A stretch of 24,479 nt of DNA from Psammoneis japonica. Taxonomy: Eukaryota. This document shows positions 2,791-24,479 of this stretch, piece by piece. Location: assembly GCA_008632985.1 (NCBI GenBank), contig QPGO01000183.1, positions 124,001 through 148,479 on the forward strand, read 5' to 3'. Every line of letters begins with the position of its first letter. The stretch's first letter is position 1. The notes beneath the pieces are model-generated. The model was given only the letters and a program-made list of their open reading frames with translations. It was not told the origin of the DNA and searched no databases. The position numbers and the translations under genes were made by a program.

Positions 2791-3835
2791 ATGGTGGACA
2801 TTGCCAATAATATGCTGTTAAATGTGGGTGAGAATATGAATCATGCAGACGAGGATGAGGGCCAACAGCACCAACAACCCATGTTGTTTGAGTCCCTCAG
2901 CGACGCGGATGTAGACGACGCACGGAATGACACGCGTCAAGGTGACGACTCGTCGAGCATACCCTTTTGTGTTAAGGGCATGGGGGGGACGGAATGATTA
3001 TGTATATGGATGGTACGTTGTCTGAATAACAGTTTCGTCAGTACATCATCTTGTTTCTCTCTACAAACACAACTTGTCTTTGGAGTTTTTGAGTGTGATT
3101 CTCCGAATTTTTATATTCCAAACAGCTCGAGGTGCAATTCGATCTTTTATTCTCCCGCGTGTGCTCGTAAACTTATGGAGCTGGGGATGGATTTGTTGCA
3201 TATAGTGTCTCTGTTGAGCGATGTTTCTAAATGATTTGCTATTCTACCTCCTCTCACACACCTGTTGCACTTTTGGTTTATACGTGCTTTATAATTATAC
3301 AGGCTTTCGGTTATCGTTCAAGGGCAACCAACCATGTCTCAATTTATTCTTTCCCGGTTGGACTCTCGATTCTCGGGTCAAATTTAGTGGTGCTCTAGTT
3401 TTGGTATTTGCTCTGGCCATTATGACCGAGGGTATTGCCAAGTGGCGACATGTGCTCCACAATAAGAGGCGTCACAACAACATCAACAAGCGAATAAGCA
3501 GCACTCACACCAGCTCTCCACCACCACGAAGAATATTCATTACACTCTTGCACACACTCCAAGCCTTTTGTGGATACATTCTCATGTTGGTAACCATGAC
3601 CTTTTCCGTGGAGCTTTTAATGAGCGTGGTGCTTGGTTTGGGTGTGGGCTATGCCGTTTTTTACAATGACGATGATCACCACGTTACCACGAATCCGTGC
3701 TGTAGCTTTATGCAAAACGAACAAGAGGAACGTGTCGTTGAGAGTGATGATACTACGAGTCGAAATAGTGGTTTGAATCAAGGCGGAGACGCAGCATTTA
3801 CCATGCCTGACGGTGGTGGACTGGAGAATCTGTGA
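2791..3835 (+). CDS. Ctr-family (SLC31) copper transporter, 2 exons, frameshifted at a G7 run (2982-2988); pseudogene or assembly error
   Basis: Met-rich MIMYMDG|FRLSFKGNQPCLNLFFPGWTLDS is followed by TM1, then TM2 with MxxxM (MLVTM) and TM3 with GxxxG (GLGVG). Adding one G to the G7 run joins KGMGG to DGMIMYMDG. The intron at 3013-3302 restores the frame. Confidence 0.85.
3013..3302 (+). other. Spliceosomal intron of the Ctr gene (290 nt, phase 1)
   Basis: GTACGT donor at 3013, CTCAC-type branch point near 3253 and TACAG acceptor ending at 3302. Splicing gives G|GC (Gly) in MDGFRLS. Confidence 0.8.
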
Positions 3836-4425: not shown

Positions 4426-6066
4426 CTAGAGACCAGAGCCAAAGTTGAAGTGCAGAAAGGGTCGTCGCGCTACGTTGGCATCAGGCATGAGGCTCTCAGA
4501 CTCATTTTCGTCAATTGCACCAAAGTGCTTGGCAAGACGCTCGAACTCTTCCATGGCAGTCTTGTATCTGGTGCCGAGTCGCTCTCCAGCAGCAAGGATG
4601 CTTTCCAAGGCTCTCATCACCTTCTTGAGAATTTCAACGTCATTGACTCCTTGTACAGAGCAAATGGCTTCCATGCCTCCGAGGCGGACAAGCTCGTCGA
4701 TTTGTACATCGCTGCCACCGGTAAAAATGTTGATCAAGACACTAATGGCCTCCTTGCGAATACCCCATTCAGCCTCCTTTGCCAACTTTACAATCGATGA
4801 AAGCCCGCTTGAGTGGAAAAAAGGCAAGCAATTTGGTTTTGGGAACCAGCTGCGATGTTGGACATCATCCAACAAAAATCTTTTTTAACGTGCTTCTGTA
4901 GAACGTTTCTCTGTAGAAGGAATGAAAGAACAAGGAATGTGAGTGATACCTGTGTTAGCAATATTTCAAATACATGCATGGTGCCACAACCAATAATAAC
5001 ATACCTGGGGACAGTTGAGGATTCGCTCGCTGTAGTGGGTAATACCGGCATTCACCACAAGCTGCGCTTGGTCCTCGGTTCCCGCACAAATATTTCCAAG
5101 GCATCGTACAAGAGGCCTGATATGGGACGGCTCGATGACTTCCAATAGATTGATGAGAACATTGACGACATGAGGTTGGTCTTGTAGGAGGGCAGTAATA
5201 CACTCATGCCCTCCGTCCGACGCATACCTCATGGCCCAGATCGAATCACCCAGGCTTTCCTTGGTTTTGGGATTGGCAAGGACTTTGGCCAAACACGGAC
5301 CAGCCTCCTTGACGAATCGAACGTCGGGATGAGGATGGGCGCGTAGCAAGTTGCAAAAGGCCCAGATGGCAGTGTTGTAAAGAGTATCGTGATTGGGATC
5401 GTTGACATTCTCAACCACACCCGTCAACGCACCAAGTTTTAGCGCCTCGTCACGGAATTGGACCGAGTCGCCGGCCGCATTGCCGACACACCAAATGGCT
5501 AGCTCACGGATATTGGCTTTTTTGTGCCAAAGACACGTTACAACTCCTGGCAAGGCACCCGCCTGAATCGCAGCAGCCGTGTAAGCGGACGAGACGACAT
5601 GATTCAAGACCGAAAGCGTTTCAATCAACGGTTGCGGTTGATCGCCCAACTGGAGAAAGCTCTTCAACGTGACGAGAACCCCTGAATCGACAATGGCCTT
5701 GACAGGAGCATCCCTTTCCAAGGACATGTTTCGATGAACCATCTTGAGAGCTTCAAGTCTAAGCTTTGCATCCCCAGTGGTTTGAAGAAAAAGGATAATA
5801 TTATGGAGTTGTTTCGGCGTAAGAGGACGTGCATGGCTTCTGTTGTTGTTGATCGTGTTGGAAACGTTTGCCGTGGACGCACCGAGCGTGAGCTTGTTGG
5901 GACCAAAGCGACGCCTCGCCCAGCGCTCTCGCTTTTTGGTCTTTCGAATCTTGTGTACCAAGTCAAGACGACGGCGAAAACCATGCTCGTGATTGTAGGA
6001 GTAAATGCGGTCTGCAGCAGCAGGAGCGATAGAGAACAATCGTGTTGTGAGTGAATGATGTGGCAT
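4426..6066 (-). CDS. Importin-alpha-like ARM-repeat protein, 2 exons, 1-nt frameshift near 4805; possibly a degenerating paralogue
   Basis: A basic IBB-like N-terminus (RRRLDLVHKIRKTKKRERWARRR) is followed by ARM motifs AIWCVGNAAGDS, AIWAFCNLLR, VRCLGNICAG, CWMMSNIAAG and IRKEAISVLIN. The intron runs from 5004 to 4896 (or 4911). The frame changes at QAG/LSSIVKLAK. Confidence 0.88.
4896..5004 (-). other. Intron of the importin-alpha gene with two in-frame TTCTACAG acceptors (4911 and 4896)
   Basis: CAG|GTATGT donor, CTCAC branch point, and a duplicated acceptor 15 nt apart. Confidence 0.75.
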
Positions 6067-6810
6067 CAACCAAAACCTTATTCAACACAACAAGAACGAC
6101 GACAAGAAGACGTTTTTCAAAAACTTGATACACGCGAAACGTCAAAACGCAACGCACAACCACGCAACGCTCGTCCATTCTACTTACGGCTCAAGTTGTT
6201 CATGATGATAGTATGCTTTGCGATTTGAGCACAATAAACGTGTGTGTTTGTGTGTTGTGTTTCTTTATGACGGTAACGACAAGAAGTGTTGAGTGTTGGG
6301 TTCGATGTTTTCTGTTGTTGTTGGCAAAAAAAAACTGGCGAGTCCAGGGTTTCAAATTTTGCGTAGGAAATGTACCAATTTCTACGCGATTGCGGTTTAC
6401 TTAGAGGAGAAGTGAGATTTGAATTCCTTCATGTGTATATGTATATATGAACTGTCCAACGTGAATTGTAGGCATGTCTTTACATGCGATTTATTTGGGC
6501 TTCTCACAGCCGTTTGAGTTCCGCGCACGAGATTTTCGTCGCGTTTGTGCCTGTCTGCCGCCCGTCAGAAGTGCCGCCCTTTGGCACCAAACATCAATCA
6601 CGCAACACCATGCACCACGCACCACGTTGCCATCTTAAAATGGGTGCTCTGTGCTCTTCCATCCAAGAGAATGTTGCTTGCCATTGTGAGGGCAGGTGGC
6701 ATTGGATTTGATGCGGCAGAGTTCCTGCTGTGATGTGCAAACTCGGGAAAAGGCAAAAGGCTGCGGACGGTGCATCCGCAATCCAGCGTCCAGCACGTGC
6801 ATCACCAAAC

Positions 6811-7008
6811 ACCATCTGCCATCCACCATCCAGCATCTGCCATCCACCACCCCCATTATCTGCACCCGCTGCCAGCACCATCCGCCATCCACACCATCCA
6901 GCATCGTCTGCACCCACCATCCCCCGCCATCTGTCTTCCGGCACCCAACATCCAACATCCGCTGCCCACCAACACCACCTGCCATCCAGCATCTGCATCT
7001 GCCATCCA
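6811..7008 (+). repeat. Degenerate CCATCC/GCATCT short-unit tandem repeat (about 7-nt units)
   Basis: Runs such as ccatctgccatccaccatccagcatctgccatccacc, repeated with variation. Confidence 0.7.
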
Positions 7009-7219
7009 CGGCAACAAGAAACACTGCACAAAATTGGAGGTGGCGACATGACAAGCAATGGGAGTGAGGCAGCACAAATGAAGAGAAAATGCATCTCTCG
7101 TCCGACGCAACCAGGGTTGCGATGGCCACAACTTTGGCCCAACTTTCTCCAACTCCAAAATGGCCACCAGGTTTCAACATGAGGAGCAACTGCTTCACAC
7201 CAGACACTGATGAGAGGTG

Positions 7220-9720
7220 GATCAAAGCTGCCCACAGGACAAGTGGGGCACTCTCCAAAGAAAGGCACAAGTGTTCGCTCTGACAGTTGCGGGGAAGAAG
7301 AAACATGCCAACGCAGGCATGCCTGCCAAGTCAATTTCACTGTCTGGGTTGAGGGTGCCGTTGGAACTGTCGTTGTTGTCAGCAGCAGCATCAGGGGCAT
7401 TGTGGATGGCTGCGTGACAATGGGTGCTGAATTTGGCCAAGCTGTGGCACAGAAGGGCAACGAAGCGGCCTTCTGGAGAATCCACACCCACTCCACCCTG
7501 GAATGGACACCGGTCGTGCAAGGCAAGTGCACCATCACTCTCCAGGGGAGCTGGTCCACTCATGTCATGAAGCATGGCCAACTCAAAGCCAGGGCGCACA
7601 CTGTTGCCGGCATTGTTGCATCAACCAGAGGCAAAATCCTTGAGTTTTTTCCATGCATTGCTGGCATTGAGCGGCGTCTCGGGGTTGATGGGGTGAGCCG
7701 TCACCATCATTGTCACATTTTGATCCTGCCAGAGGGTGAGCCCTTTCTGTCAGGACCACACACTCTTGAAAGAATGACAAAGGAGCCAAGGGTTGAGGTG
7801 AAAATCTGATTGAGGTGGAGGCTGGGGGGTGCAAAGAGTCAGTGCGAACAATCGTGCCAAGTTTTCCTGACAACCACATTTCCGAAATGCAACAAGCCAA
7901 TTGTGAGCAGCTGCAGTCATCTGTGCCTCAAAGTGCAAGTGCCTGAGAATTCACAACTGGGGTGCCCAGGTTCTTGAAGCATTTCTTGTGAAAGGGCGGC
8001 ACCACTCTTGTTCCACGGCAAACAACAGAAATTGTGCCACATGGTCAGGTGGTCTTGAAGGGATTTCCACATCTGCTCCCAGTTGTCAGTGTCATTTCAA
8101 AGCTCAAGATTGCAGGATTCTTCTGGGTGAGATGCACGGCCAACATTTGTGCTTGCAGTTTTCTGTTGCTCAGAAATGTGGCTGGACTTTGTTGGTGGGT
8201 CATTCTTCCATGATGAATGATGGAATGACGCTGATGCAACAATGCCCCACATGCTTGGGGCAACATCCAATGGGTCACCTTGAGCTGCACTCCCGAAACA
8301 TCAGGATCTTCCTTGGTTGTCCATTTGTGGGAAATGAAGATTCATCCCAGGAGCGACGGATCTGTCCAAGGTGGGGTGGGAACTCCCCGAGCCCTCAACT
8401 TGGTGGCAACAAAAGTGGTCAACTTGGGTTCAATCACTGTGGAAAAGGGAAATGCTTGCAATCACTGCAGCGGCAATGACAGTGATGATGATGACAATGA
8501 ATGATTCGTGGACTTTGCAATGCAGGATGATTGGCTGAGATCACAAAACTGCAAAAAGTTGCAAATGGTGTTTGCACTGATGTTGCTCAGTGGGGGGGGG
8601 GGCCGTGCCATCCAACTGACTCCCATGTCGGCCACTGCACCTGGATCAAGGTCAATGCCAGTCAACTCATTGCCTTGTTTGGTGGGCCCTTCCATGTTGC
8701 TTGCAATCAAATGACTGTCTGGGATCACGGAGAGAAACCTGACATGTCCAAGGATTTGCAGACTTTCCCTGTGAACCCAAGCAGAGTTGTCAACAGACAA
8801 AAAAAACACAGACACCGATGGTGGTTGTCTAAATTGTCGGCACTCCTCTTTGCAATTGGCAAACCCAGCTTCTGTGATGGGTGTCATTTGGTGCACTGAT
8901 GCAAAGAAAGCCCAACCACAGCACATGCATCAGCTTTGATTCCACGCACATGGCCCTCCATGAAGCCCTCAACGGAGTGCCGCATCGACCCATGCAGCAT
9001 GTGTCCACCATTGCAACAACTTCCCATGTTTGTGGTGACTTTCAAGTGTCACACCAGGGGAACATTGTCCAGCATTTCCTTGCAAAGCACAGCCACATCA
9101 TGTTGCACTTGATTGGAGTTGGGATTCACTTTTTGAAAGAACAAGCCCTCATGGACCACAACTCTGGGAAGGTGAGGAGAGATTCCATTCTTGGTGCAAG
9201 CTCTTGTTGCAACCTTTGACAGCAGACAATGAAATGCCAGCCTGCCAGACATGACTGCAGAACCAGCCATTTTGTCCAAGACAATCAACACCGTCTCGTC
9301 ATCCATCGCCGGAGAATCAAAATGGTTCTTCACTTTGTGTGGCCGCCCCAGCACCTTGTTTCAGAGAATTTCCTGTTCTTCAACATCCGCAGTCTCACAG
9401 TGCTGATGTCAACTTTTTGTGACATCAGCTCCAAGCACAGCCAACATCTCTTTTCCTTTCTGAAGTGCCCTCAAATGGTCTCGCTCTTTGGACATTGAAA
9501 TGATGCCGGCAGAGAGTGGATGAGAGCATGTGGCCCTTGTCGTCCTTGAGTGTTCTTGCGTTGGCAAGCACCACATCAACAGCGCATGGAAAAACGAATC
9601 CATCCCTTTTCATCCATTTGCTTGTCATCATCTTCTTCTTCATCAGAGGTGTTTTTGGGTCTGTCATCAAAGTGCGATTCATCAGCCTGCTCTGGTGCTC
9701 AAAGCTTGCTCTCCCCAAGA
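7220..9720 (-). mobile_element. Possible highly decayed transposase-like coding relic (hAT-like, tentative)
   Basis: Fragmentary minus-strand frames include FELAMLHDMSG..LESDGALAL, loosely recalling the ELA..D.G....LEGDG.L segment of some hAT-related transposases. No terminal inverted repeats were identified. Confidence 0.2.
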
Positions 9721-10003
9721 ACCCTCCTTCTTTTTTTGCCTCTCAGGAGCAGTTGCTCCAGCTGCTCTTTTGCCACACGACTGTGTTCTAGCCACTGGCT
9801 CTAGCTGGCTGCCACTGCTGCTCTGGCTTAGAGCACTGCAGAGTGCAGCAATGTGCCACGGCAGTTTTCAGATTCCTAAAAATGAATTTCACGACTGGCC
9901 TCCACGTGGATCTCCAAAATGAGGCAAGCCTGCCTTTCCGTTTCAACGGCAGTCATCATTTTTAAATTAATTTAGCCTCGCCGGAGCTGTCATCCAATGC
10001 ATC

Positions 10004-10836
10004 GTGCATCACTCTTCTCTCATTTCTTGTTTTGTTTCTTGCACATGCAGTGTGTGGAACACCTTCCACGATGATGGTGCTTCATGTCCACATCATGGTC
10101 TCGAATCCCACAGGCTGCCAGAGGGTCCATTTGTTCAGGAACGACACAACGTCGGTCGACAATGCTTGCACAGCAGTGGCATTTCGAATCTCAAGATGGC
10201 AGGGGTAAATCAAGACAGCAACGGTGCTTCTGACAATGAAGTTGAAGTCACTCAAGTCATCCATCCCATTGATGGGGACACCGAGTGACACAATGATGAT
10301 TCGAGCAAGGATTCCGACGACGACATTCTTGATGTCTGCTCCAACAACAATGGCAGGATTGAGCATGACAACGATGAAGTCATTCAAGCCCACCATCACA
10401 ACAATGGTGATGTTGATCACGGCAATTGTGGTTTGAACAAGGAGTCCGATGATGACGTTCTTCATGTCTGCTCCAACAATGATGGCAGCACCACCCAAAT
10501 GCACTCTAGCCACAACCGCGGATCTGAGCAAGAGAGCAACGATTCTGATGTGAGACCGCAAGAAGCAGAAGAAGAACTTGTGAACTGCAATGATGATGCT
10601 GAGTTCACTGGGACAAATCACGGGTGGCACGAAACTTGGGAATCAAAGTGCCAGCATTTGGTGCAATTCAAGAGGAGGTGCGGTCATTTGCGAATCCATT
10701 GTGAGCACAACAGGAAGGTGTGCAACTGGATTTGCTGTCACGTGAAGGAACACTGAGAGTGTTCTGGCAGGAGGAAAGCGCGTGGTGAAAAGAAGCTGGG
10801 GAAGTCACACGTCGTCTAGAGCAACTTGGGCCATTT
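10004..10836 (+). pseudogene. Relic of a helicase-associated (HA, PF03457-like) domain protein with an acidic N-terminal region
   Basis: WHETWESKCQHLVQFKRRCGHLRIHCEHNRKVCNWI is followed, after a frameshift, by RRLEQLG. This matches the HA pattern W...Y..L..FK...GH..VP......L..WV...R..LE.LG. There is an internal duplication of about 50 bp (about 10307-10356 and 10439-10488). Confidence 0.7.
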
Positions 10837-11264
10837 GAAACAACAAGCATGTCAAGACAAATGGGCAGAGCCACATCAACTGCATCATGTGGCATCAACA
10901 GTGATGCCACATTTGCAAGAAAGGATGCCGCAACCAGGAAAATGCTCGTCTTTGCAACCAATTCTCTGCGCATTGCCAAGCTCATGCTGAAGCTAGATTT
11001 GCCTGTGAGGCAGAAGGCCGTCGTAATCTAAAGTCCATGGAGTGGTGTCTTTCTTGTGCTTGCAGCCCATTTGAAGCTCTTTGTGCTCTGATCAACTGTT
11101 GATCAGTTGTTGAGAACAAAGCTCTTGATGGCAATTGTGCTTGGCGAAGCTTTTTCCAGCCTTCAAGGGTGACGGTGAACGTGACACAAACTCAAGCTTG
11201 TTGGACGAGTTCTTTCAGAATGGCGAAATCAACGCACGTGACATGAAGCTGAAGCTTTCTTAAA

Positions 11265-11395
11265 GGCAAGACTGCCGCCATGTTCAACACATGCCGTTGT
11301 GCTTGATGCCAACAAGGAGCATTTTACAGCATGTGTGGCAAGGCTGCCGCTGCGTTTGACACCTGCCGTTGCGCTTGATGCCAATGAGGAGCATT
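11265..11395 (+). repeat. Two-copy tandem duplication, period 72 bp
   Basis: ggcaagactgccgcc...tgccgttgtgcttgatgccaacaaggagcatt and ggcaaggctgccgct...tgccgttgcgcttgatgccaatgaggagcatt. Confidence 0.75.
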
Positions 11396-11694
11396 CCGCA
11401 TCATGCATGCATGTGCACATTTTTTGCAGTGGAAGCAAGTGACAAATGATGAAAAGAGATGCCATGATGCACAGCATGAAACCAAAAACCACACGATCTT
11501 GGTTGCAGGGCACCGGCAGCTGGGCAAGTCTCCGAATTGCTCAGAACCGGCATTGGCGGAAATGGGAACAAAACCAAGCCCATGGCATTTTGAAATGCAA
11601 TTGTCAGGTTTTCCACGAAGATTCAAAAAAGTTTCACCTGAGTTTTTAGCCGCCACGCAGTTCTGCGTAGAACCACACGAGAGCCATTGCCACG

Positions 11695-14316
11695 ATGATT
11701 GGCGACAAACCACACGACGCTCTCACTTTTGAACTTGGAGAAGCTTGCAACACTCACCATTTGTCTTGTCTCACAAAAGCAATCATGGACCTCTTCCTGT
11801 TCATTTTCATTGCTCTCTTTGCCACAGCCATCGTTGCTGTTGTGGTTTTGATCTCTTTGATCTGCAAGCTTGTCATCAACACCATGCTTGCCGTCTTGGT
11901 CGTGTTGAAGCAAAACTCAATGCTTTCCAATGTTGCCAAGATTCAAGCCCATCCATTCCAAGAGACCTTGTTGCTGACTGCAATTGACGACGTCAAGCAC
12001 ATGTGCTTCTTTTCTCCCAAGGCATGGCTCGAATTGCACGTCAAGAAACTCTGTCGCCTTGCCGCCAAAACCTGCAAAGACCACATCGCCAAGCTTCCGA
12101 CGCTCGTCAATGAGTCATTTGCTTGAGGCCTCAAGAACTTCCACATCAAGATCAAGAAGTTTGTCAAGTTGGACGTGCACATCAACAATGCCGTCATCGC
12201 CAGTGCTGCAAGCTGTGCACCGGCTGGGTTGCTCCCAGTTGTTGATGGCGTGGAGTTTGCAATCAAGTTGACAAAGAACAAGCAATTTCAAAAGATTCAG
12301 TCAGAAATTGCCAATGTGCTGAAAAAACTCTTCACATGATGCAGCAACATTGAAGTGAGCTTCCAGTTTGAGCACTGCAACAAGCTTTGCTCTCTGTTGG
12401 TTGATGTCGTGTTGAGATTGGTGCTCTAACGCAAGAATTCCTGGGCGCCAAGTGACCTGTCATGATGCCTCCATGCTGCATTTGAGACAAGTCCAGAGGT
12501 TGTTGATCTCGTGCCATCAATTCCTCCTTCGACCGTGCCCGCTGCTCAAGCCGTCAAAGAATTCAGCGCCACTCCATCAGACATTGCGAGTGCATCAGAT
12601 GAGCTTGTGGTTGCAACATCAGAAAGCATTGTCTCCTTGGGCACACCTGCTGTGGCTCCGACAGAAAATGGCAGTCATGTGCCCCTGACTCTTTCGTCGG
12701 ATGCACCAAGTGTGTGTCTGCAAGAAGGGGCTGAAGATGTTCCATCGACGCCCACTTCGACAATGCCCACTGCTCAAGCCGGCAGCGAACCCAGCACTGT
12801 TCCGTCAGAATTTGCCAGTCCTTCAGACGAACCTGTGGCCACTTTGTCAGAAGCCATTGACCATGTGCCATTGACCTCTCTGCCGCTGTTGTCATTGGAG
12901 CCAACTGGGCTGACATGAAAGCACTCAAAGAAAACAAAAGTGACAAAGAACGGTTGCAGAGTCAACCCAAAGACAGCCTGTTCTTCCAAGTTGCTGGCGG
13001 CCCAGATGCAGGAGAACAAGAAGAAACAAACAGCAAAGCATCAACCCGAGTGCCGCAAAAGGACAAGGGCAGCAAGACAAAAAGCACACGGGGCAGTCCC
13101 TTCGAAGATGCTGAGAAACATTGCATTTGAAAGGGCGACTCCCTCAGATGCACCTGACGTGGTTTCGTCCGAAACAGTTGACGATCAAATTCCGTCCATT
13201 CTGTCATTGACCGTGTCCGCAGATCTGGACGGCGATCCGCCAAGCGACGCTCTTTCAGAAGCTGAAATCTTGCTGGGTGCACCTGCTGTGGCTCCAACGG
13301 AAGACGTCAGCCATGTGACACCGACTCCTTTGCATGCTCCGTTGAATGCACCCAGTGTGGTTTCACAAAAAGAAAGTGATGCTGTCCCATCAACAACTCC
13401 TCTGACAGCATCCGCAGCCACAGCCAGACCATGCACTGTCAAGCGACGCAAGGTGTTGAAAAAGGAGCTGCGCTGTGAACAACAACAAGCTTTCAAATGC
13501 ATCAAAAGACATCATCAAGCTGGATTGCTTGCCTTGTCAAAGAACATTCGCGGGGGGTTCATTGACATGAGCAGGATGAAACCAAATGTCGCAGCTTCGT
13601 CCTTCCAAGCTTTGCTTGGAATCTGTTCAGATGTTTCACAAAACCACAAGGAGAGAAAGAAAATGCGAGTGGTTTGTCACAATTGACGCATGTCTCCTGA
13701 GTCCAATGCGTTGAAGAAGCAACTTGATGCATTCAAGAAGAAATGCCAGAAGAGATTTGACACCCGCAAAATTCAACAAGATGCCAGCCGCAGAAAGAAT
13801 GTTGAATCCAATCGACAGTGCAAACCCTGAATGAAATCCTTCGATTTGCAAAACACCACGTTGCTTCGAGCAATTGTGTTTGCATGGCAGCATGTCATCC
13901 CTCCGTCAGAAGCACCTGCAGCAGAAAAACGAGAAATGTTTGGAAGAATGCACACTGTGAGACATGCACAACCATGTGATGAAAGCAGCCTTTTCACCAC
14001 CAGACTTGCCATTTTTTGCTCGCCTTTGCCATTCAGCACAATCGAAAAAGAATCACACTGGGTTGATGACAATGCAGCATCACACGAGTGTGCCGTGGTC
14101 TCTTTAAGACCATTGACTGCACCACCCCTTTTTGTCATGGCCATTCACTGTCCCAGCCCAAACCCAAAGCTCGAATGCTGGCTCATGAGAACAAAGGTGC
14201 AAGTTGCTCAATGTCTTGTGTCCTCTTCTGTCTCGAATTTTCAATTGGCTCAGTGCAGCAAGTGTCAAACGCCACCGGTTTCAATTTCCCACACCCCGGG
14301 CTCAGTCACTTGCTGA
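11695..14316 (+). pseudogene. Long single-frame coding relic (about 870 codons) of unknown protein with internal Pro/Ser/Ala/Glu repeats
   Basis: ORFs starting at 11695, 12511, 12940 and 13831 share one frame, separated only by point stops (12124, 12337, 12427, 12463, 12916, 13684, 13828). In-frame internal repeats include STVPAAQA../STMPTAQA.. and LGTPAVAPTENGSHV/LGAPAVAPTEDVSHV. Confidence 0.55.
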
Positions 14317-16800
14317 AGCACATTCCTGCTGCGCCAGGTGGAAGATGTCATTCGTGCCCCGAAATGTCACATTGCATGCGTGCCTGGAATTGAATCTTGG
14401 TCAGACAGTCCATTGCGGATGGCCCCTGTTTGCAACTCTGACCATTGATTGCAAGCCAGGCGGGAAACGAGACCTTGGTCAAATTGGCAGCTGCACTTCT
14501 TCACAATGTGCTGGCCAGTCATGATGGGTGCCATCTCAAAGATGACATGTGCAATGGTGGTGCAGAGCGCTCCACAAACAATGGCACCCTGGCCCACCAC
14601 CATTGAAAAGACACTGGGTGCCATTTCGAGTTTGCCAGTTTCAGTCGCTTTGGAGGAGACGTGAGCGGCAAATCGAAAGGACGTGAGTGGCTTCAAGCCC
14701 AAAAACTTGCAAACCACAGAACAACCCACCAAAAAGAGCCGGAGTCAGCTTGAGCCATGACAAAGAAGAGACAGCCCCACATCGCAGTCTTGCCCTTGCA
14801 GAAATGCACCAAGCCGGCATCACAATCAGCTGCCACATCAATGTCGAAAGCCACGAGTCCGGCGACCTTGTTGGCCGCGACGATTCAGAAGACTCGAGAG
14901 AGGATGAGGACAAATGCCGTCTCCGTGAAGAAGAGCGTGCTTTGTCGGAACGATTTGGAGAAGTTGGCAAAGCCAGCAGCAAAAAGCAAAAGCAAACGGA
15001 CAGGAAATCGAAGCCGAGTGTGCCAAGAAGCAAGCAAGAAACCTCGTCCAATGTTGTCACTGGCACACTTGTGTGGTTCCAATGGAGCGGCGCGAATCAA
15101 GAATGAATTCTCCAGAACCCTCTTTACACCTTGGCTCGCTCACTTGACGGCTCTTTTTCCCAGATGGGTTGAGCTTGCTTGGTGAGTTTCAAGGCTGCTT
15201 CCATGTCAGCCTCACAGCCGCGGGGAACCTTTCCAAAAATGGATCAATCCGCGGGATTCTCCACGTCAATGGCAACAGAATCAGGCAGCAATGCACTTGT
15301 TGCCGCTCCATTGACTGAGCCTCTTCTTTCCTTCAGTGGAACCAGGCTTCATTGATGAATGACATCCCACCAAGTCATGCAGGCTGCTGCCATCTCGAGA
15401 CCCTGCCCAAAATGAGTGTTGAAGAAATGTTTTGGAAAGAGTCAAGGCAATGAAGACACGGAGAGACAAAGCACACATTGTGCACTCATGCCAGATTCCA
15501 GTGAATCAATTGTCATTGCTTGAGGAATTGCACATGTGCAAGGATGGCAGAAACTGCCGCCGAATGAGAGTCTTGAAAGCAGAGATTGTCGACAAGATCG
15601 CCGGAGACGAGTCGGTCTCCGTGTGGCAACTTTGCATGCCGGCCACCACGGCACCAAAATGCAGAAAACATCAAGCAAATGGCACGGTGTTGATTTCAGA
15701 AAGACATCCGAGAGCCAACGGATCGGCACATCAAGCTTTTGCTTGAATTCAAACCAACAAACAACTCCAAACGCCCGAAAGCCGCCTAAAATTGGACAAA
15801 GGCCCAGCTCCTGGTGCCGGGAAGAAAGCCAGTCATGCTGCACACGAACATCCATGTCCGCTAAAATGGCAAAAAAGAGGTGAGAGAATCTTGTGTGCGG
15901 CTGACTCTCAAAATGATTGCAGCTGGGATGCTGCACCCCTTCATGAGCGGGCCGCTGCAAATGGCGGTGTTGCTCTGCGGCGGGGCATTGCAGATGCATG
16001 AGAACAACTGACTGCTCACACAGGACATCATCTCATGCATCTCAGTCTCATCCATCTGTCTCACCCGTGCTCAACCTGAATGAGGAACATGCAATGTGGC
16101 GAGTCATCAACCAGATCCAAACAGTGTCGCAAAGCACTGTTGCACAGTCTCACCTGTGGCTCCAAGTGTCACAACTGGAGCAAGCAGAGAGTGGTGTCAT
16201 GCACCCCAAATGAAAAGAAATTGAGGCAGCCATCATGGAATCTTGCAACAAAAGGGTGTCGCTGCCAGTGCAGCAGCCAAGTCCACGATGTGCCGCGACT
16301 GTCAAAGCTGCACTTCACCCCCCTCTTCAAAGTGCGTGTGTCAGCGGCGTTTTCGGATCAATTCAGTGTCCTCTTTGGCCCTGTTGTTGCCCTCAACTTT
16401 CTGGTCATTCTCCTCATCGCTCAACACTGCAAGCAAATCAAGGCAAGCCATGTTTCCGTCAATGTCAACCAAGGACAACAAGCACACATTTCAAGCGAGA
16501 TTGCTTCTCTTCCATGAACATCACACACTTCTTTTTGCGCTGCCCTCGTGCACCACAAATTTTTGGAATGCCGTGCCTTGGATGCCGCCACGAATTCAGC
16601 ATGCTGCTTGGAAGCAAAGGTTGAAATACCCATTGCGATCTCCATGCTGTGTACCGATCCATTGCTTCTATTTACTCGACTCGTACAATGCCCCACCAGA
16701 TCGGAGGTCGGAGGTCGGAGGGGTTCTACGTGATTGGCGCACGTGACTATCGCGCAAACGTTCAGCATTTCAAAGTATCCAACCTGAATATAATCAATGC

Positions 16801-17002
16801 GTGTCGAATGCATCGTAATGTGTCCTTAAAGCACGTATACATTCATTGATTATCGCGTGACGAATGCATCGTTTTTCGTGACGAATGCATCGCAATGTGT
16901 TATTAAAGACCGGACACATTCATTGATTTCGCGTGACGAATGCATCGCAATATATTTATACAGAACGAATAACGCATTAGTTTTGCTTGTGAGAATGCAT
17001 CG
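16801..17002 (+). repeat. Array of five GTGACGAATGCATCG motifs, mostly 55-56 bp apart
   Basis: Motif starts at 16801, 16857, 16878, 16933 and 16989. The spacers are related to each other (aatgtgt..ttaaag..acattcattgatt..cgc). Confidence 0.85.
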
Positions 17003-17597: not shown

Positions 17598-18569
17598 GTG
17601 TGGCCCTGAAAGTGGTGAAGAATAGACAAGCTTATGCACAACAAGCAGCTGTGGAGATTGATGTCTTTCGGGTATTGAGTAAAGACGAGGATGGCTTGGC
17701 CACCAACTTTCAAGCAAACGATCGCAAGATGGTGCACCTGCAATCATACAGTACGCATCAGAATCGCCTTTGCTTGGTGTTTTAATTGTTGGTGATGAAT
17801 TATTACGAGGTTTTCAATCAGCAGCAGTTCCGAGGGTTACCGTTGACAATGGTTCGGTCGCTGCTCGTGCGAGCAATGGACGGCGTGCAGGAATTGTGTT
17901 AGCGATCGATTGTTAATTGCAGTCTGAAGCCTGAGAATATCTCGCTTACCGAGAAGTAGTCTGGTTTAAGCAATATCAAGTTAATCAATTTCGGTACGGC
18001 TTGCCTTGAAGGACACACGGCTCATACGTATGTTCAATCTCGATTTCACCACAGCCTGGTTGTTCTTCTACTCTAGTGCTACCGTACAATTCCGCAATTT
18101 GACATGTGGTCCTTTGACGCGTTGCCGCCGAACTGTTCCTCGGATTGTCTCTACTACCTGGTGCTTATGAGCACGATCAGCTGAGACGACTTTGTGAAAT
18201 GATTGGACCCACTCCAGACAAGGTGATTGGCGAAGGGTACGTGTCATTTTTTGTATTTGATACTTTTATTGAACGGACGCATGTGCTCATTTATTGTTTA
18301 TCGCTGCTATAGTCTTTGTTCAGTGCTAATAATCGTCCATGTACTTTGCAAAATTTATTTCCAAGTCGGAAACTATTACTTCAACTCCGATGCAGCCACA
18401 AACCAGCACAGCTAGCATAGAGAAGCCATCATCTTCGAAGACACAGAGAGAATATCTCGATGGCATCCCAGAAGAAGAAATCCGAAAGATATCCGGGCTA
18501 CGGAAGCTAGAGAAGCAACCCACCAATCGATACTTCAAGAGAACAAAGCTTTTGAGAATACATGTGTAG
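17598..18569 (+). pseudogene. YAK1: YAK1/DYRK-family protein kinase pseudogene fragment
   Basis: Motifs VALKVVKNRQAYAQQAAVEI, LCLVF*LL, QFRGLPL, NCSLKPENI (HCDLKPEN decayed), IKLINFGTAC (DFG decayed), YVQSRFH, DMWS and AAELFLGL..PGAYEHDQL. Several in-frame stops and frameshifts are present, and a GTACGT intron donor lies at 18237. Confidence 0.9.
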
Positions 18570-19199: not shown

Positions 19200-20913
19200 T
19201 TACAAATCCGGATCGGGATCCTCCTCCAAGTAGGAATCAATCGTCTGTCTCTCGCTCCCATCCACACATTGAATGTCGTAGTACGCCACGAGATCATCAT
19301 CAAAGTAGACATTTACAACTTTGGCCATTACACGAGTGTTGTTGCGGCAGTAAAGCACGTCCTGGCCCTTCGTGTACGTTGAAATAGGAGTTTTCGGCGC
19401 AGGAGTGAGATGTGAATCGACGGCCTCTCTCTCTTCCCCATCAGGCATACGGACAGCATAGGTCGGGTAGAAATCCTCGTGGGTGATAATTCTAACGACG
19501 ACGGCAGGAGTGGCCTCTTGCCAACTTCGAGCCTTGTGAATCACTTTGTCACCCACCGAAAACTTTGGAGGAATCTCCAAGAAAACAAGCTCTCCTCCAG
19601 GTTCTTGCACTGGATTGGCATAATTCACTGAGCAAGGGGGGTAGCAGACAGAGTAGTGCCGAACTGTGTTGCCGTCATAGATGATTTCGTCGATTTCAGC
19701 TGGAATGGTTTTGTCGAAGAACCGATACTTGAACGTCACCTTGTCCCCTACCGAATATAACTTTGGCTGGAGCACCTCGGAACAAGGCCCCATGACAGGG
19801 TCTTCTTTACATTTTGGATTCAAAAGCTCCGTGTCTCCTTCAGATGCTACCGAATACAACTTTGGCTGGGGCGCCTCGAAACAAGCTTCTTCGACAGTTT
19901 CTTCTTCTTCCTTTGGATTACACGGCTCGGTGTCTCCTTCAAATACCGCCGAATGCAACTTTGGGTGGGGCACCTCAAAAGGCTCCGCGTCTCCTTCAGA
20001 TACTGCCGACTGTAACTTTGGCTGGGGCACGTTGTCTTTTTCTGCTTCCGATTCGACCGTCGGTGGAGAGTTGTTCATTGGAACCGGCTCGTGAAAGGCG
20101 CCACCATCGCAACCAGCACTGTTAACAGGGGTGAACCGATACTTCCTAGGGATTGACGTGGGCGGCGGAACTTCGATCGGCGGAACTTTGATGTTGTTGA
20201 GTTTTTTTGTCCTCCATTTGACCGACAGTGGAGAGTCCTTGTAGATAGGAACCGGATCGCGAGAGTCGCTACTGTTGCAACCAATGTCGTGAGTAGAGCT
20301 GAACTGGCACTTTGGAGCACTCGGCTTGGGAGGCAAAGCTTTGAAGATGTCTTTTTCTGATTTCATTTCGACCGCCGGTGGGGGGTTGTACATTTGAACT
20401 GGTTTGCGAATTGTGCTACTGTTGCAACCAACACCGTGAGCAGGACTGAGCTGGTGCCTCAGAGGGCTCGGCTTGGGAGGCAAAAGGTTGATCTTTTCTT
20501 TTTCTGACACCGGCTCGAGAAAAGCAATACTGTCGCGATCAATGCCGTGAATAGGGCTGAAAGCAGGAAAAGGAACAGAAGGAATGCGACGTGAGAAACA
20601 AATGTTGTCGTAACAGGCAGTACAAACAACGAGCGCAATAGAGAACTTACTGCAGAAATGGCTCATTGTCTTCAAAGGTCGAATCTGTAGTCCAACCCTC
20701 GTCGTCATAATGCGCCTGAGCCCGCTCCTCAAAGACAAGGTAGAGATAGATAAGACATACAGCCGCGAATAACCAGACGTTGACTGCCCTCAAAAAGAGA
20801 AACACGAGGAACCAGCAAACCGCGACAAATGGGCTGAACTGATCAGGATCCATGATTCGGTCATAGGTACCAAAGAGAAACAAGGCGTTCAAGAAGAGGA
20901 AAGTGTACAACAT
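19200..20913 (-). CDS. Apparently intact 539-aa protein: hydrophobic N-terminal membrane segments, Pro-rich repeats and three C-terminal Tudor/SH3-like modules; exons 20913-20651 and 20556-19200
   Basis: ATG at 20913 starts MLYTFLFLNALFLFG..VAVCWFLVFLFLRAVNVWLFAAVCLIYLYLVF. A phase-2 intron (GTAAGT...CTCAC...TTTCAG, 20650-20557) joins it in frame to the 512-aa ORF. The modules read YSVGDKV..AEIDEIIYD..HYSV, FSVGDKV..AVVVRI..PTYAVRMPDGEERE and YTKGQDV..AKVVNVYFDDDLVAYYDIQCVDGSERQT. Confidence 0.78.
20557..20650 (-). other. Spliceosomal intron (94 nt, phase 2)
   Basis: GTAAGT donor, TTCTCAC branch point, pyrimidine tract and CAG acceptor; splicing restores the frame. Confidence 0.85.
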
Positions 20914-22390: not shown

Positions 22391-23130
22391 GATGCGGTAC
22401 CTAGCAGCCCAGCTCCGAGTGCCACACCGACAGTTATGACATTGACACCCCCAGCACCTCTGACGAGTGCTCCATCAAGCAGTGTTGATCCAAGTGAAGC
22501 GCCGTGACATACAACAAGTACAAGCCCTGCTCCCAGTTTGGCACCAAGCAATTCTCCCAGCGCAAGTCCAGCACCAAGCTCAACTCCAAGTCAAGAACCA
22601 TCAGCAAGCCCGGCTCCGAGCAACACACCAACTCACACGAACCGACCACCAAGTCGCAGTCCTGCACCGAGTGAGACTCCCAGTGCATCTCCAAGCAGCA
22701 GTCCAGTGCCAAGTGATTTGCTGAGTGAGTTGCCCAGTGCAAGTGCTGCCCCAAGTTCTGTGCTGAGCAACGCTCCCAGTGCAAGTCCAGCACCGAGTGA
22801 CGCATCAACACACACAACTCTGCCTCCAAGTTTGAGTCCGGCACCAAGCGAGGCACCCAGTGTGGCACCAAGTGGCAGCCCGGCACCAAGTGATTTGCCA
22901 AGTGAATTGCCTGTGCCGAGCAATGCTCCCAGCGCAAGATGCCATCTCAAGCTCCCAGTTTGAGTTCAGCACCAAGCACTTCTCCCAGCATGGCTCCAAG
23001 TGCAGGGTTCGCTCCGTCCGCCTGCCCAGCTCCCAGTGAATTCCCAAGCACAAGTCCCAGTTCCAGCCACACCTTAAGTCGTGCTCCAAACAGCATGCCA
23101 AGCCGCAGCCCACCCCAAGTGACACTCCCA
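22391..23130 (+). pseudogene. Pro/Ser/Thr-rich xAPSxxPS mucin-like repeat coding segment, disrupted
   Basis: Many SPAPS/APS/PSASP units. There is an in-frame TGA at 22505 and a frameshift near 22940. Confidence 0.7.
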
Positions 23131-24479
23131 GTGGCGTGCCATCTAAAAGTCCTGGATGCTCGCAATTTGGGCTGGATGGATTCCTTGGCATGGGAGCATG
23201 GGCTTCTCCGAGTGGATGTGTTTGAGCAGACAGTGGAAACAGAAGGATTTGCAAGTCCGGCACTCCATGTCAGTGCTGTCAGGGAGGAGACAATTTGTGC
23301 GCTGATGGGATCAGAGGCAAAGTTCAGGTGCGGCAAAGTGCAGAGCATCTTCTCTGCTTCCAACAGTGTGCCAACTTCTGTGTTGCACATCCTGTCCAGG
23401 CAATCATCAAGAGATGCCCTGGAAACTGGATGGATCATGTGCCTCGCACAACTTCTTCCAACACCGTGCAGCAACTGTGACAGCTGCATGTGGCTCTTGC
23501 TCAAGCCCATGGCATTGGCACACTCAACAATTGACCAGACAACTTCATCGGATGAACCTTGCATCGCAATCTCATCAACTGTGACATCTTGTCTGCTGGA
23601 AGGGTGTTGGTCATGCCTTCTTCTGCTGATGAGCACAGGAAAAGACAGAGATGCAACTGAGGAGACAGATGAATTGTGAGACAAATGGTCAGCAATTTGT
23701 CTTTGTCCCAGGTTGCAAATGATGTTTGGGATTTGAAGCTGACCTTTTGAATCTTCCAAGTGGCACCCCAGCAGTGTCCCACAGCACATCTCCTGTGTGC
23801 AAGATGGACAGACTTGTTGCTCTGGGCCACCTGCCTGTGGCCAGCACTGCCACTTTGGCTCAAGCCTTTGCCCACAGATTTGGTCCAAACCTGTGCAGCA
23901 GCTTTTGCCCATGGGAGTTCCACACAGGCAAGGCATGACCCAACTGGCCATTAAGCAGTTGACACATCTTGCATGAAGCAGCGGCTGTGCAGAACTGCAC
24001 AGTGCCAAATGCAGCCATTGTCACACAGGGACTCAAGCTCCATGTGTCTTGCTGTCTTGCACATGCAAGTTGCGCGTGCAGAATTTTTTCACAATCTCTG
24101 CAACACCAGACTCACATGTTGCTGCCTGAGTGCTTGGACCCCCCCATTCCTGCACAGTTTTGCTGCAACACTGCCACCTCAAGTGCAAAAATGCCAGCCC
24201 AGCTGGCTGCCACCACAGAATGTTGCTCTGCCTGCTCTCTGAGGCTGTTCAGCCAACAGGGGAGCAGACAGCAGAGATCGAGAGCAGAAATTGCAAAAAT
24301 GTTGCTCATGCACCAGTTGAGAGTGGGCACAAACATTTTTCAAAATTGCCGCTTCTCATTGAGTGTGGTGCACCCATTGTGCATGTTGGCACAGGTGCCA
24401 AGATGACAAGATTTCCAAGATTGCACCTGTTTGACACAAATGGTTGCAGATGCTGCGTTTCATGATTGACTGCAGAGAG
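22521..24479. other. Second TpA-erased, TG/CA-rich block, running off the window end
   Basis: Only three TpA found by eye (about 23075 TTAA, 23144 CTAA, 23952 TTAA). CpG also looks sparse, and the ORFs lack Tyr. Confidence 0.9.

Follow-up and report, generated by a model that had tools for sequence, protein, structure and literature searches.

What process removes nearly every TpA step from some ten kilobases of DNA, stops within tens of bases at both ends and leaves ordinary sequence on either side? This question is raised by the window analysed here, a single stretch of 24,479 nucleotides, for which the initial annotation had claimed a sharply bounded 10-kb block erased of TpA, a run of about 2 kb with none at all and an excess of TG and CA. 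The features of the window are collected in Table 1.

Table 1. Features of the window, with positions counted from its first nucleotide.
Feature	Position	Strand	Details
Ctr copper transporter gene, flank	3221..3835	+	Pfam PF04145, E 1.7e-19
Armadillo-repeat gene, flank	4966..6069	-	Pfam PF00514, E 8.5e-10; ends ~425 bp before block 1
TpA-erased block 1	6493..16626	.	~10.1 kb; 25 TA vs 436 expected (flank density)
Left border zone, block 1	6493..6563	.	70-bp 95% bound from flank TA spacing
Longest TpA-free run	6858..8829	.	1,973 bp, bounded by TA at 6857 and 8830
Cluster of 7 surviving TpA	9789..9973	.	CTAG, CTAG, TTAG, CTAA, TTAA, TTAA, TTAG; all YTAR
Relic of long reading frame	11671..14880	+	frame of 11671; few stops
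Right border zone, block 1	16557..16626	.	70-bp bound from flank TA density
Protein-kinase gene fragment between blocks	17600..18115	+	Pfam PF00069, E 3.9e-6, 26.9 bits, under the curated cut-off of 31.7; TpA content normal
TpA-erased block 2	22522..24479	.	3 TA vs 84 expected; cut by window end

Extent and borders of the TpA-erased blocks

Dinucleotide counts for block 1 (6495-16626, 10,132 bp) gave 25 TpA where base composition predicts 626.4 (O/E 0.04), together with an excess of TG (981 against 571 expected, O/E 1.72) and of CA (1122 against 699, O/E 1.61) and a deficit of CG (337 against 637, O/E 0.53). In the flanks the O/E of TpA is 0.62 and 0.49, and 533 TpA in 12,389 bp correspond to one per 23 bp, a density at which the count in block 1 has a Poisson log10 P of -148. 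The second-longest TpA-free run in the block measures 1,678 bp and the largest gap in the flanks 262 bp. Regarding the borders, 13 TpA within 6364-6492 are followed on the left by the next ones only at 6636, 6857 and 8830, and on the right the last TpA of the block lies at 15862, none occurs in 15863-16626 and seven occur in the 124 bp from 16627; at flank density both borders are placed to within about 70 bp. The erased block, the long run and the TG/CA excess of the initial annotation are thus all borne out. It did not mention block 2, in which the deficit has a log10 P of -31.6. The frequency of TpA is 0.0025 in block 1 and 0.0015 in block 2.

Read support, copy number and paralogues

Logan contigs, which are assembled from 31-letter words of reads, cover the left part of block 1 in run X1, which may be the assembly's own data: one spans 5292-6841 across the left border with one difference and another 6823-9286 with four differences, at depths of 56-57, equal to the single-copy depth. 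Bins 7148-8481, within the longest TpA-free run, are covered by one X1 contig at depth 57.1 and are therefore single copy. The sequence of the block is real and not an assembly artefact, because contigs from public reads reproduce it across the left border.

Differences to paralogue contigs, counted over about 20 kb as a whole, comprise 331 A>G, 379 G>A, 346 C>T and 330 T>C; given this near-symmetry, the paralogues seem to be TA-poor as well. Among the 13 in-block paralogue differences listed, three have TA in the paralogue contig and CA or TG here. Paralogue contigs of a second run, X2, start matching at 22517, the TA-free border of block 2. Between internal duplicates 157 of 676 aligned columns differ, with 18 TG-vs-CA discordant pairs, of which CpG decay alone predicts 14, so that ancestral TA is not demonstrated by these pairs.

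Dinucleotide balance, strand symmetry and CpG loss

Pyrimidine-purine (YR) steps, the sum of TA, TG, CA and CG, make up the same fraction of the dinucleotides, 0.2433, in block 1 and the left flank; block 2 stands at 0.2514 and the middle flank at 0.2472. From the left flank to block 1 TA changes by -0.040, CG by -0.021 and TG+CA by +0.061, and the YR balance is kept in every purine/pyrimidine class of 4-mers (634 vs 638 per 10^4 for Y..Y, for instance). Since the TA and CG deficits are exactly offset by the gains in TG+CA, the change points to transitions only. GC content goes up from 0.476 to 0.502, an increase near the +0.019 that this transitions-only model predicts.

The share TG/(TG+CA) lies between 0.40 and 0.56 in 23 of 24 windows of 400 bp (starts 6801-16001), the outlier being 6801-7200, a CCATC repeat, at 0.26. 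When the succession of TG and CA was examined by a runs test, z was +0.58 in block 1, +0.28 in block 2 and -3.3 in the left flank. Both strands have been struck, site by site and in random order, as TG and CA rise equally and their order is random. From composition we infer the direction TA to TG or CA, with the flanks assumed to represent the ancestor, and a 4-mer regression on this flank-as-ancestor composition is weak (R2 0.22); searches of 5.8 billion proteins, of 1.84 billion representatives and of IMG/VR returned no unmutated homologue.

The loss of CpG is coextensive with the TpA-erased blocks, which suggests cytosine methylation or heterochromatin. Block 2 has a CG fraction of 0.018 and, in its only full 1-kb window, a CpG rho of 0.23. 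CpG decay through deamination of 5-methylcytosine resembles the loss of TpA in that a symmetric dinucleotide is eroded to TG/CA on either strand, and it accounts for the low CG of both blocks and for most of the TG-vs-CA differences between the internal duplicates. Unlike the process under study, however, it cannot remove TpA, the loss of which is about five times more complete than that of CpG on a log scale (O/E 0.04 vs 0.53 in block 1).

Context and recency of TpA erasure

The two blocks together retain 28 TpA, namely 22 in YTAR, six in mixed (YTAY or RTAR) and none in RTAY context, compared with 71, 283 and 179, respectively, among the 533 TpA of the flanks (Fisher p=1.2e-13, or 6e-9 when the 9789-9973 cluster is omitted). 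The members of this cluster are read as refractory sites rather than as a later insert. Erasure depends on the wider context r-T-A-y, RTAY being lost fastest and YTAR slowest. Mixed contexts have gained more TG than CA (107 vs 66 per 10^4), which suggests that erasure is favoured by a pyrimidine 3' of the target A more strongly than by a purine at the second position 5' of it. Random substitution at 0.5% per site would create about 3.4 RTAY TpA in these 12 kb; because none is seen, the exclusion of TpA is ongoing or ended very recently.

Gene content of the window

The Ctr copper transporter has 50 relatives at 34-59% identity, and the three with a named organism are all diatoms (Grammatophora, Seminavis and Amphora). 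For the Armadillo-repeat gene a near-length search returned no relatives, and by the kinase fragment an X2 contig shows an intron-like GT..AG joint from 18235 to 18312. The window contains no deaminase gene.

The blocks are non-coding at present: open frames of at least 80 codons number roughly 10 per frame, about the chance level, and the six frames of block 1 contain no Pfam family at or above the curated cut-off. The relic frame has 7 stops per 800-codon window, against mostly 17-27 in other frames and places, and encodes 0% Tyr, 3.7-4.0% Cys and 3.1-4.4% His. No relatives were found for 12466-13683 in the search of 5.8 billion proteins, and none for 12430-14880 among 1.84 billion representatives or in IMG/VR. 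The foreign origin of the blocks is thus putative, the Pfam, viral and other relative searches having given no match.

Comparison with Bigelowiella natans

TpA hypermutation of integrated viral DNA has been reported in mutation-accumulation lines of Bigelowiella natans, where two integrated viral regions received 231 of the 302 single-nucleotide mutations that arose de novo; of these 231, 230 were A to G or T to C, and every one of the 230 was on TpA (Mettrop et al., 2026-04-14, bioRxiv 10.64898/2026.01.13.699255). The same preprint describes 124 TpA-depleted, CpA+TpG-enriched clusters in the genome, a subgroup of CDS with a TpA frequency of 0.0018 and a single-copy NCLDV target, and it has overtaken the statement of the initial annotation that it knew of no characterised mechanism. 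Going by the preprint, both cases share the hitting of TpA alone, with change to TpG or CpA, the confinement to regions adjoined by ordinary DNA and the resulting clusters, and the affected genes of B. natans are often unannotated. Block 1 falls within the cluster thresholds of that paper in nine consecutive 1-kb windows, and its TpA frequency resembles that of the low-TpA CDS group.

There are also differences. Bigelowiella natans is a chlorarachniophyte (Rhizaria), whereas the present window is diatom-like, as judged by one gene (Ctr). The preprint observed mutations de novo and demonstrated viral origin; here there is a footprint in composition alone, without viral matches. Its hypermutating regions are far from saturation (rho TpA 0.45 for the NCLDV region, and a TpA content of 9.2%, above the genome average, for the virophage region), whereas rho is 0.04 here. 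The main text of that preprint does not take up the RTAY/YTAR context or a coextensive loss of CpG, both of which are seen here.

Explanations for the footprint

Both blocks are probably the saturated footprint of region-targeted TpA to TpG/CpA hypermutation, a process of the same kind as in B. natans. The initial annotation had proposed a region-limited, TpA-specific A:T to G:C transition process, and this proposal agrees with the YR balance, the random strand order, the refractory context of the survivors and the de novo precedent in B. natans. In such a process A:T to G:C transitions would occur at the self-complementary TA step, with either DNA strand attacked one site at a time, and the target would be inserted, partly repeated and apparently silenced nuclear DNA of a diatom-like alga. 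Targeting may track whatever mark labels DNA as foreign or silent. As to the chemical step, we tentatively favour, at somewhat less than even odds, an enzyme that deaminates DNA adenine to hypoxanthine, a base that would be copied as if it were G when the DNA next replicates. The damage would consist of missense changes and lost TA-containing signals and stop codons; it cannot consist of new stops, because a change of TpA to TpG or CpA cannot make an in-frame stop codon.

Alternatively, the footprint could predate arrival, the element having been hypermutated as a virus, an episome or a replication intermediate, or copied from a TA-free master, and then inserted, so that the sharp borders would be insertion ends and nothing would have acted in situ. 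Borders within about 70 bp and free of any gradient into the flanks would fit such a history, as would the coincidence of the left border of block 2 with the start of the paralogue match, the near-symmetric differences to relatives that seem TA-poor and the other, deeper flank haplotype or paralogue, which leaves 7148-8481 uncovered at a threshold of 80% likeness. We nevertheless regard it as unlikely: the random mixture of TG and CA on both strands is unlike a one-strand RNA or cDNA stage, the absence of RTAY TpA, which 0.5% neutral change would recreate about three times, shows that erasure continued to or nearly to the present, and the blocks are covered by CpG decay, as expected of resident methylated DNA. 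In B. natans, moreover, the mutations reported in the preprint arise in situ in integrated DNA.

A regional process in situ could also have another chemistry, in which the thymine of TpA is modified on both strands as a silencing mark and mispairs with G, giving T to C, in analogy with the decay of 5-methylcytosine at CpG; the mark might be 5-hydroxymethyluracil or a base-J-like base made by a TET/JBP-type dioxygenase. Hydroxymethyluracil in dinoflagellate DNA occurs mainly at TpA and TpC, and such a mark would suit the symmetry of the process, which takes either strand at random, the preference for RTAY over YTAR, itself palindromic as would befit a mark recognised on double-stranded DNA, and the CpG decay in the same blocks. 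This chemistry appears improbable, since such a base is purely hypothetical in this organism and the unequal gains in mixed contexts fit an enzyme that reads one strand with a preference for the 3' neighbour; the authors of the preprint likewise favour adenine deamination.

Selection against TA words, through a nuclease or a TA/TTAA-targeting transposon that cuts or inserts at TA, might explain context-dependent survivors by a recognition word longer than TA but is very improbable, given that the blocks are non-coding, that a two-base target is, to our knowledge, too short for known nucleases and that acceptance of any substitution would have lowered YR by about 0.015 at the observed transition share, whereas it is unchanged. 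A technical artefact, be it a chimeric assembly or modified DNA that was miscalled or wrongly polished, might be entertained because run X1 has no recorded library type and may be the assembly's own data, but it is scarcely credible when the contigs carry TA-free sequence at the depth of unique flank, with one joining flank to block, and when strand-specific misreading of modified A would give reads that are all TG on one strand and all CA on its complement, in place of the single, randomly ordered TG/CA sequence.

Comparison with other mutators

The hypermutation preferred here shares with fungal RIP a saturated regional attack by transitions on one dinucleotide, sharply bounded and directed at non-genic, partly repeated DNA. 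RIP depends on DNA-methyltransferase-like enzymes, acts premeiotically and is fungal. It changes CpA to TpA and thereby generates TpA and stop codons, whereas the present process destroys TpA and has no way of introducing an in-frame stop. Duplicated DNA is a further requirement of RIP, so that the analogy drawn in the initial annotation fails as regards repeat induction: 7148-8481 is single copy (depth 57), as is the NCLDV target of B. natans according to the preprint.

ADAR, which acts on double-stranded RNA, and APOBEC, which acts on single-stranded DNA, likewise deaminate bases enzymatically against foreign nucleic acid. Both leave strand-coordinated runs with partial and graded neighbour preferences, and ADARs are, as far as we know, regarded as animal-specific. 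In block 1, by contrast, TG/CA order is random, loss is limited to TpA and AA is undepleted (O/E 1.24), which also speaks against the Pol-eta route (WA to WG) raised earlier. ADAR is described as changing A to G with a 5' U favoured (bioRxiv 10.64898/2026.01.13.699255). Adenine deaminases of the TadA family, ADAT2/ADAT3, occur in all eukaryotes and have a natural target, A34, that follows U33; they are the candidate named for B. natans (bioRxiv 10.64898/2026.01.13.699255). The only ADAT described as shown to edit DNA is amphioxus BjADAT2, which according to that account prefers single-stranded DNA hairpin loops and, as to sequence context, TCG and GAA rather than TpA (PMC10354150).

The blocks look like the saturated product, in a probable diatom, of the kind of TpA hypermutation that was first described in 2026 from an unrelated alga.

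Extent and borders of the TpA deficit

Dinucleotide counts in block 1, the TpA-erased segment at 6495-16626 (10,132 bp), revealed 25 TpA where 626 are predicted from base composition (observed/expected ratio, O/E, 0.04), together with O/E values of 1.72 for TG, 1.61 for CA and 0.53 for CG. TpA O/E in the flanks is 0.62 and 0.49. The left flank, which precedes block 1, and the middle flank, which separates it from a second TpA-free segment (block 2), contain 533 TpA in 12,389 bp, i.e., one per 23 bp, a density at which 436 would be expected in block 1 (Poisson log10 P = -148). TpA is absent for up to 1,973 bp at a stretch (6857-8830), the widest gap in the flanks being 262 bp. At the left border, 13 TpA lie within 6364-6492 and the next occur singly at 6636, 6857 and 8830; at the right border, 15863-16626 is devoid of TpA and is followed by 7 within 124 bp, and from the spacing of TpA in the flanks each block border is located to about 70 bp. 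The counts thus bear out the description in the initial annotation of an abruptly bounded 10-kb block from which TpA has been erased, about 2 kb of it lacking TpA altogether, with TG and CA in excess.

Features located in the window
Feature	Position	Strand	Remarks
TpA-free block 2	22522-24479		3 TA against 84 expected; cut by the window end
Ctr copper transporter	3221-3835	+	Pfam match, flank
Armadillo-repeat frame	4966-6069	-	Pfam match, flank
Kinase fragment	~17600-18115	+	below the Pfam cut-off
C-rich CCATC-type repeat	6803-7009		just within the left border of block 1
52-nt unit (CGTGACGAATGCATCG...), three copies	16800-16983		spacing 55-77 nt; ~175 bp beyond the right border of block 1, in TA-normal DNA
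512-codon frame	19200-20738	-	normal TpA; without a Pfam family
Tandem repeats within the 512-codon frame	19748-20507		99-nt and ~150-nt, encoding FGWG-like units

Gene content of the blocks and flanks

Regarding coding capacity, the blocks are non-coding today. When block 1 was read through in all six frames, no Pfam family reached its curated cut-off, the best sub-threshold matches being Aldedh (20.8 bits against a cut-off of 23) and HA (E 0.28), and an organelle or bacterial insert was rejected because block 1 has no conserved domains. Rfam, tRNA and tandem-repeat scans gave nothing relevant and no RNA genes, and block 1 was found to have neither terminal direct nor terminal inverted repeats. 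With TGA taken as the sole stop, open frames of at least 80 codons occur at about chance frequency. In a forward-strand frame at ~11,300-14,900, stops number 7 per 800 codons, with mostly 17-27 in other frames and places; this frame is probably what remains of a long gene. The section at 12466-13683 gave no matches in a set of 5.8 billion proteins, and that at 12430-14880 none among 1.84 billion representatives and none in IMG/VR; neither Pfam in the six frames nor the search for relatives of the relic frame gave a sign of foreign origin. Tyrosine is absent from the relic frames and cysteine and histidine are raised, as is expected if TAY codons were converted to TGY or CAY. From the genetic code, the same change would be unable to create an in-frame stop, since TAA becomes TGA or CAA and TAG becomes TGG or CAG, and old frames would remain long.

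The first 450 bp of block 2 are occupied by 42-62-nt repeats rich in Ser, Pro and Ala codons, which start some 125 bp ahead of the border of that block.

Comparison of 13 open frames with Pfam gave matches in the flank genes only. A search with the Ctr frame gave 50 relatives, 34-59% identical to it, of which the organism-named ones are all diatoms (3/3), and no Bigelowiella proteins were among the matches; from this one gene, the organism is taken to be a diatom or a close ochrophyte. The Armadillo-repeat frame gave no matches in a search for relatives. No deaminase gene was detected within the window. The array of 52-nt units is possibly a regulatory array or the end of an element.

Strand symmetry, sequence context and timing

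The ratio TG/(TG+CA) lies at 0.40-0.56 in 23 of 24 400-bp windows across 6801-16400, the exception (6801-7200) being the one with the CCATC repeat, and a runs test for the succession of TG and CA gave z = +0.58 in block 1 and +0.28 in block 2, compared with -3.3 in the gene-bearing left flank. As TG and CA rise jointly and in random order, either strand was struck, site by site, in agreement with the earlier claim that TpA was lost on both strands. Single-strand deamination of the ADAR/APOBEC type, in contrast, leaves strand-coordinated clusters of one change; the random order seen here resembles the decay of a symmetric mark. A mutagenic mark on thymine is a rival explanation of the footprint.

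TpA surviving in the two blocks and present in the flanks, by 4-mer context (Y, pyrimidine; R, purine)
Context	Surviving TpA in blocks	Flanks
YTAR (CTAA/TTAG, CTAG, TTAA)	22/28	71/533
Mixed (YTAY or RTAR)	6/28	283/533
RTAY	0/28	179/533

Survivors and flanks differ strongly in the share of YTAR against all other contexts (Fisher p = 1.2e-13), and with the flanks as a proxy for the ancestor, TpA survival would be about 32% in YTAR, 2% in mixed and 0% in RTAY contexts. The TA 'island' at 9789-9973 consists of seven YTAR sites, and its interpretation as a later insertion was rejected, as all seven are in this refractory context. In mixed contexts the gain of TG exceeds that of CA (107 vs 66 per 10^4) and, with CpG decay allowed for, an A followed by a 3' pyrimidine was struck about twice as often as the A of the other strand. 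A rough multiplicative fit to these small counts suggests a boost of about 4-5-fold by the 3' pyrimidine and of about 2-fold by a purine in the second position 5' of that A. These patterns would amount to a testable specificity, in which RTAY is erased fastest and YTAR is refractory, and the r-T-A-y site would be new.

As to timing, a random substitution level of 0.5% per site would be enough to re-form about 3.4 RTAY and 6 mixed TpA in 12 kb, where 0 and 6 were seen. Between internal duplicates, 157 of the 676 columns show a difference, and the blocks have lost about half of their CpG; since RTAY sites have not been re-formed despite this divergence and CpG loss, TpA removal appears to be ongoing or to have ended very recently. 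Erasure of TpA before integration of the DNA is a further rival to hypermutation in place.

Sequence in reads, copies and paralogues

Contigs built from the reads of two coded public runs, X1 and X2 (Logan), were compared with the window. Run X1 contains 84% of the words sampled from 6000-15999, and its contigs match 5292-6841 (1 difference), connecting normal flank with block 1, and 6823-9286 (4 differences), at depths of 56-57, which is the depth of unique flank. A technical artefact, which the initial annotation had proposed to check in reads, is thus disfavoured by read-derived contigs bearing TA-free sequence across the left border, with the limit that X1, whose library type is not on record, may be the assembly's own data. 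Misreading of bases is likewise disfavoured, because modified A would yield all-TG or all-CA reads according to strand, whereas TG and CA are interleaved in the one sequence that is present.

Paralogues of parts of block 1, with 80-95% likeness, are present in X1 and X2, and the match of X2 paralogue contigs to block 2 starts at 22517, which is the TpA-free border of that block. Bins 7148-8481 are represented in X1 by one contig at single-copy depth and may have had copies in the past. On block 1, X2 contigs of 80-90% likeness lie at 11526-12488, 13159-13817 and 14558-15282. In the left flank gene, a second and deeper X1 sequence type was observed at 4480-5813 (at the places listed, other letters have depths of 36-154 out of 56-180), which would fit a diverged second haplotype, a homeologue or a paralogue; among the contigs shown, 7148-8481 is covered by the single-copy contig alone, and block 1 may therefore exist in only one of the two types. 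The CCATC-type repeat has a summed X1 depth of 2480 and many loose ends, which suggests that this short motif occurs in abundance in the rest of the genome. In the kinase gene, an X2 contig omits 76 nt with GT..AG ends at 18235-18312, which resembles a spliced intron, so that X2 may contain transcript-derived sequence; no RNA runs were among the public runs listed for the window sequence.

Type and direction of change

As transitions preserve the purine/pyrimidine pattern, the pyrimidine-purine (YR) fraction (TA+TG+CA+CG) is a usable check on the type of change, with values of 0.2433 for the left flank and for block 1, 0.2472 for the middle flank and 0.2514 for block 2. Compared with the left flank, block 1 has lost 0.040 TA and 0.021 CG and gained 0.061 TG+CA, losses and gains also balance within purine/pyrimidine 4-mer classes, and GC has risen from 0.476 to 0.502, near the model prediction of +0.019. 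Selection is disfavoured, since purging of TA via any substitution type would have reduced the YR fraction, which is unaltered between left flank and block 1.

The compositional footprint is that of TpA->TpG and TpA->CpA changes only, AA and GA not being depleted. Mutagenesis of the Pol-eta type (WA->WG), which had been suggested initially, was not borne out, as AA and TT, each with an O/E of 1.24 in block 1, lack the depletion expected of a WA-type polymerase signature. The direction from TA to TG and CA would follow from composition. Eight internal duplicate pairs hold 18 TG-vs-CA pairs, 14 being expected from CpG decay alone; differences between the window and paralogue contigs are nearly symmetric across the 20 kb compared, and among the 40 paralogue differences listed, the paralogue has TA at only 3 of the 13 that are in a block. 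A regression of block on flank 4-mers gave a TA coefficient of 0.52, with the sign expected, but an R2 of only 0.22, and was set aside.

Rho CG is 0.23-0.68 in 1-kb windows wholly within the blocks and 0.70-1.12 outside, and block 2 shows even stronger CpG loss than block 1 (CG fraction 0.018). CpG depletion with TG/CA gain in the same region is as produced by 5-methylcytosine decay, which accounts for the CpG part only. The depletion of CpG is co-extensive with TpA loss and suggests that the blocks are, or formerly were, cytosine-methylated silent DNA.

Comparison with known systems

The literature searched contained no description of diatom blocks free of TpA, the sole relevant paper being a preprint on TpA hypermutation of integrated viral DNA in Bigelowiella natans (bioRxiv 10.64898/2026.01.13.699255). 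According to that preprint, 231 of 302 new single-nucleotide mutations in mutation-accumulation lines fell in integrated giant-virus and virophage regions, 230 of the 231 being A->G or T->C and every one of these on TpA, at a regional rate about 1000 times that of the genome and in some lines only; the genome contains 124 clusters of TpA-depleted, CpA+TpG-enriched 1-kb windows, and a group of 324 CDS has a TpA frequency of 0.0018 (bioRxiv 10.64898/2026.01.13.699255). Block 1 has a TpA frequency of 0.0025 and, with the B. natans cluster thresholds reported there applied using the Karlin ratio, passes them in nine consecutive windows. As in B. natans, discrete regions, here two blocks, lie beside normal DNA. 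The main text of the preprint is silent on wider sequence context and CpG (bioRxiv 10.64898/2026.01.13.699255), and the r-T-A-y specificity and co-extensive CpG decay are additions to what it describes.

Fungal RIP makes TpA by C->T change at CpA, the opposite of the present case, in which TpA is nearly gone and CpA/TpG are in excess. Regarding duplication, a criterion of RIP, 7148-8481 is a single contig at single-copy depth and other parts have paralogues. The regional and dinucleotide-centred nature is shared with RIP, which the process does not appear to match in other defining respects. Of the initial proposal of a region-targeted A:T->G:C mutator, the confined and transition-balanced footprint stands, and Pol-eta chemistry is not supported.

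Explanation and significance

Eukaryotes are known to defend their genomes by targeted hypermutation in the C->T direction (RIP, APOBEC). For the A:T->G:C direction, such a process aimed at TpA was described for the first time in 2026, in one rhizarian alga (bioRxiv 10.64898/2026.01.13.699255). The blocks probably represent the footprint of TpA->TpG/CpA hypermutation of the B. natans kind, recent or still in progress and run to saturation, on inserted silent DNA in a diatom-like genome; the process belongs to a very recently described kind and is not a categorically new system.

Regarding chemistry, adenine deamination on DNA is preferred, tentatively, and deamination by an ADAT2 homologue was proposed by the preprint authors (bioRxiv 10.64898/2026.01.13.699255). 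The one ADAT2 shown to edit DNA is described as favouring hairpin loops and, as contexts, TCG and GAA (PMC10354150), which makes ADAT2 no more than a candidate enzyme for the blocks. It is conceivable, if rather unlikely, that TpA-directed hypermutation is a genome defence common to SAR algae, here in a diatom, and no peculiarity of one chlorarachniophyte, and that it saturates on silenced inserts, reads r-T-A-y as a palindrome in duplex DNA, is coupled to a cytosine-methylation mark and employs an enzyme other than the housekeeping ADAT2/3. As diatoms are transformable, the enzyme could be found genetically, and the specificity for RTAY, with YTAR refractory, could be used for screening candidates.

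From a saturated footprint in the genome of a diatom-like alga it would follow that the process reaches beyond one lineage, that near-complete erasure of a dinucleotide from 10 kb is possible, and that TpA erasure runs alongside CpG decay. Blocks free of TpA and rich in CpA and TpG would provide a simple marker of silenced foreign DNA in algal genomes, DNA that would lack recognisable genes because tyrosine and stop codons have been rewritten without new stops.
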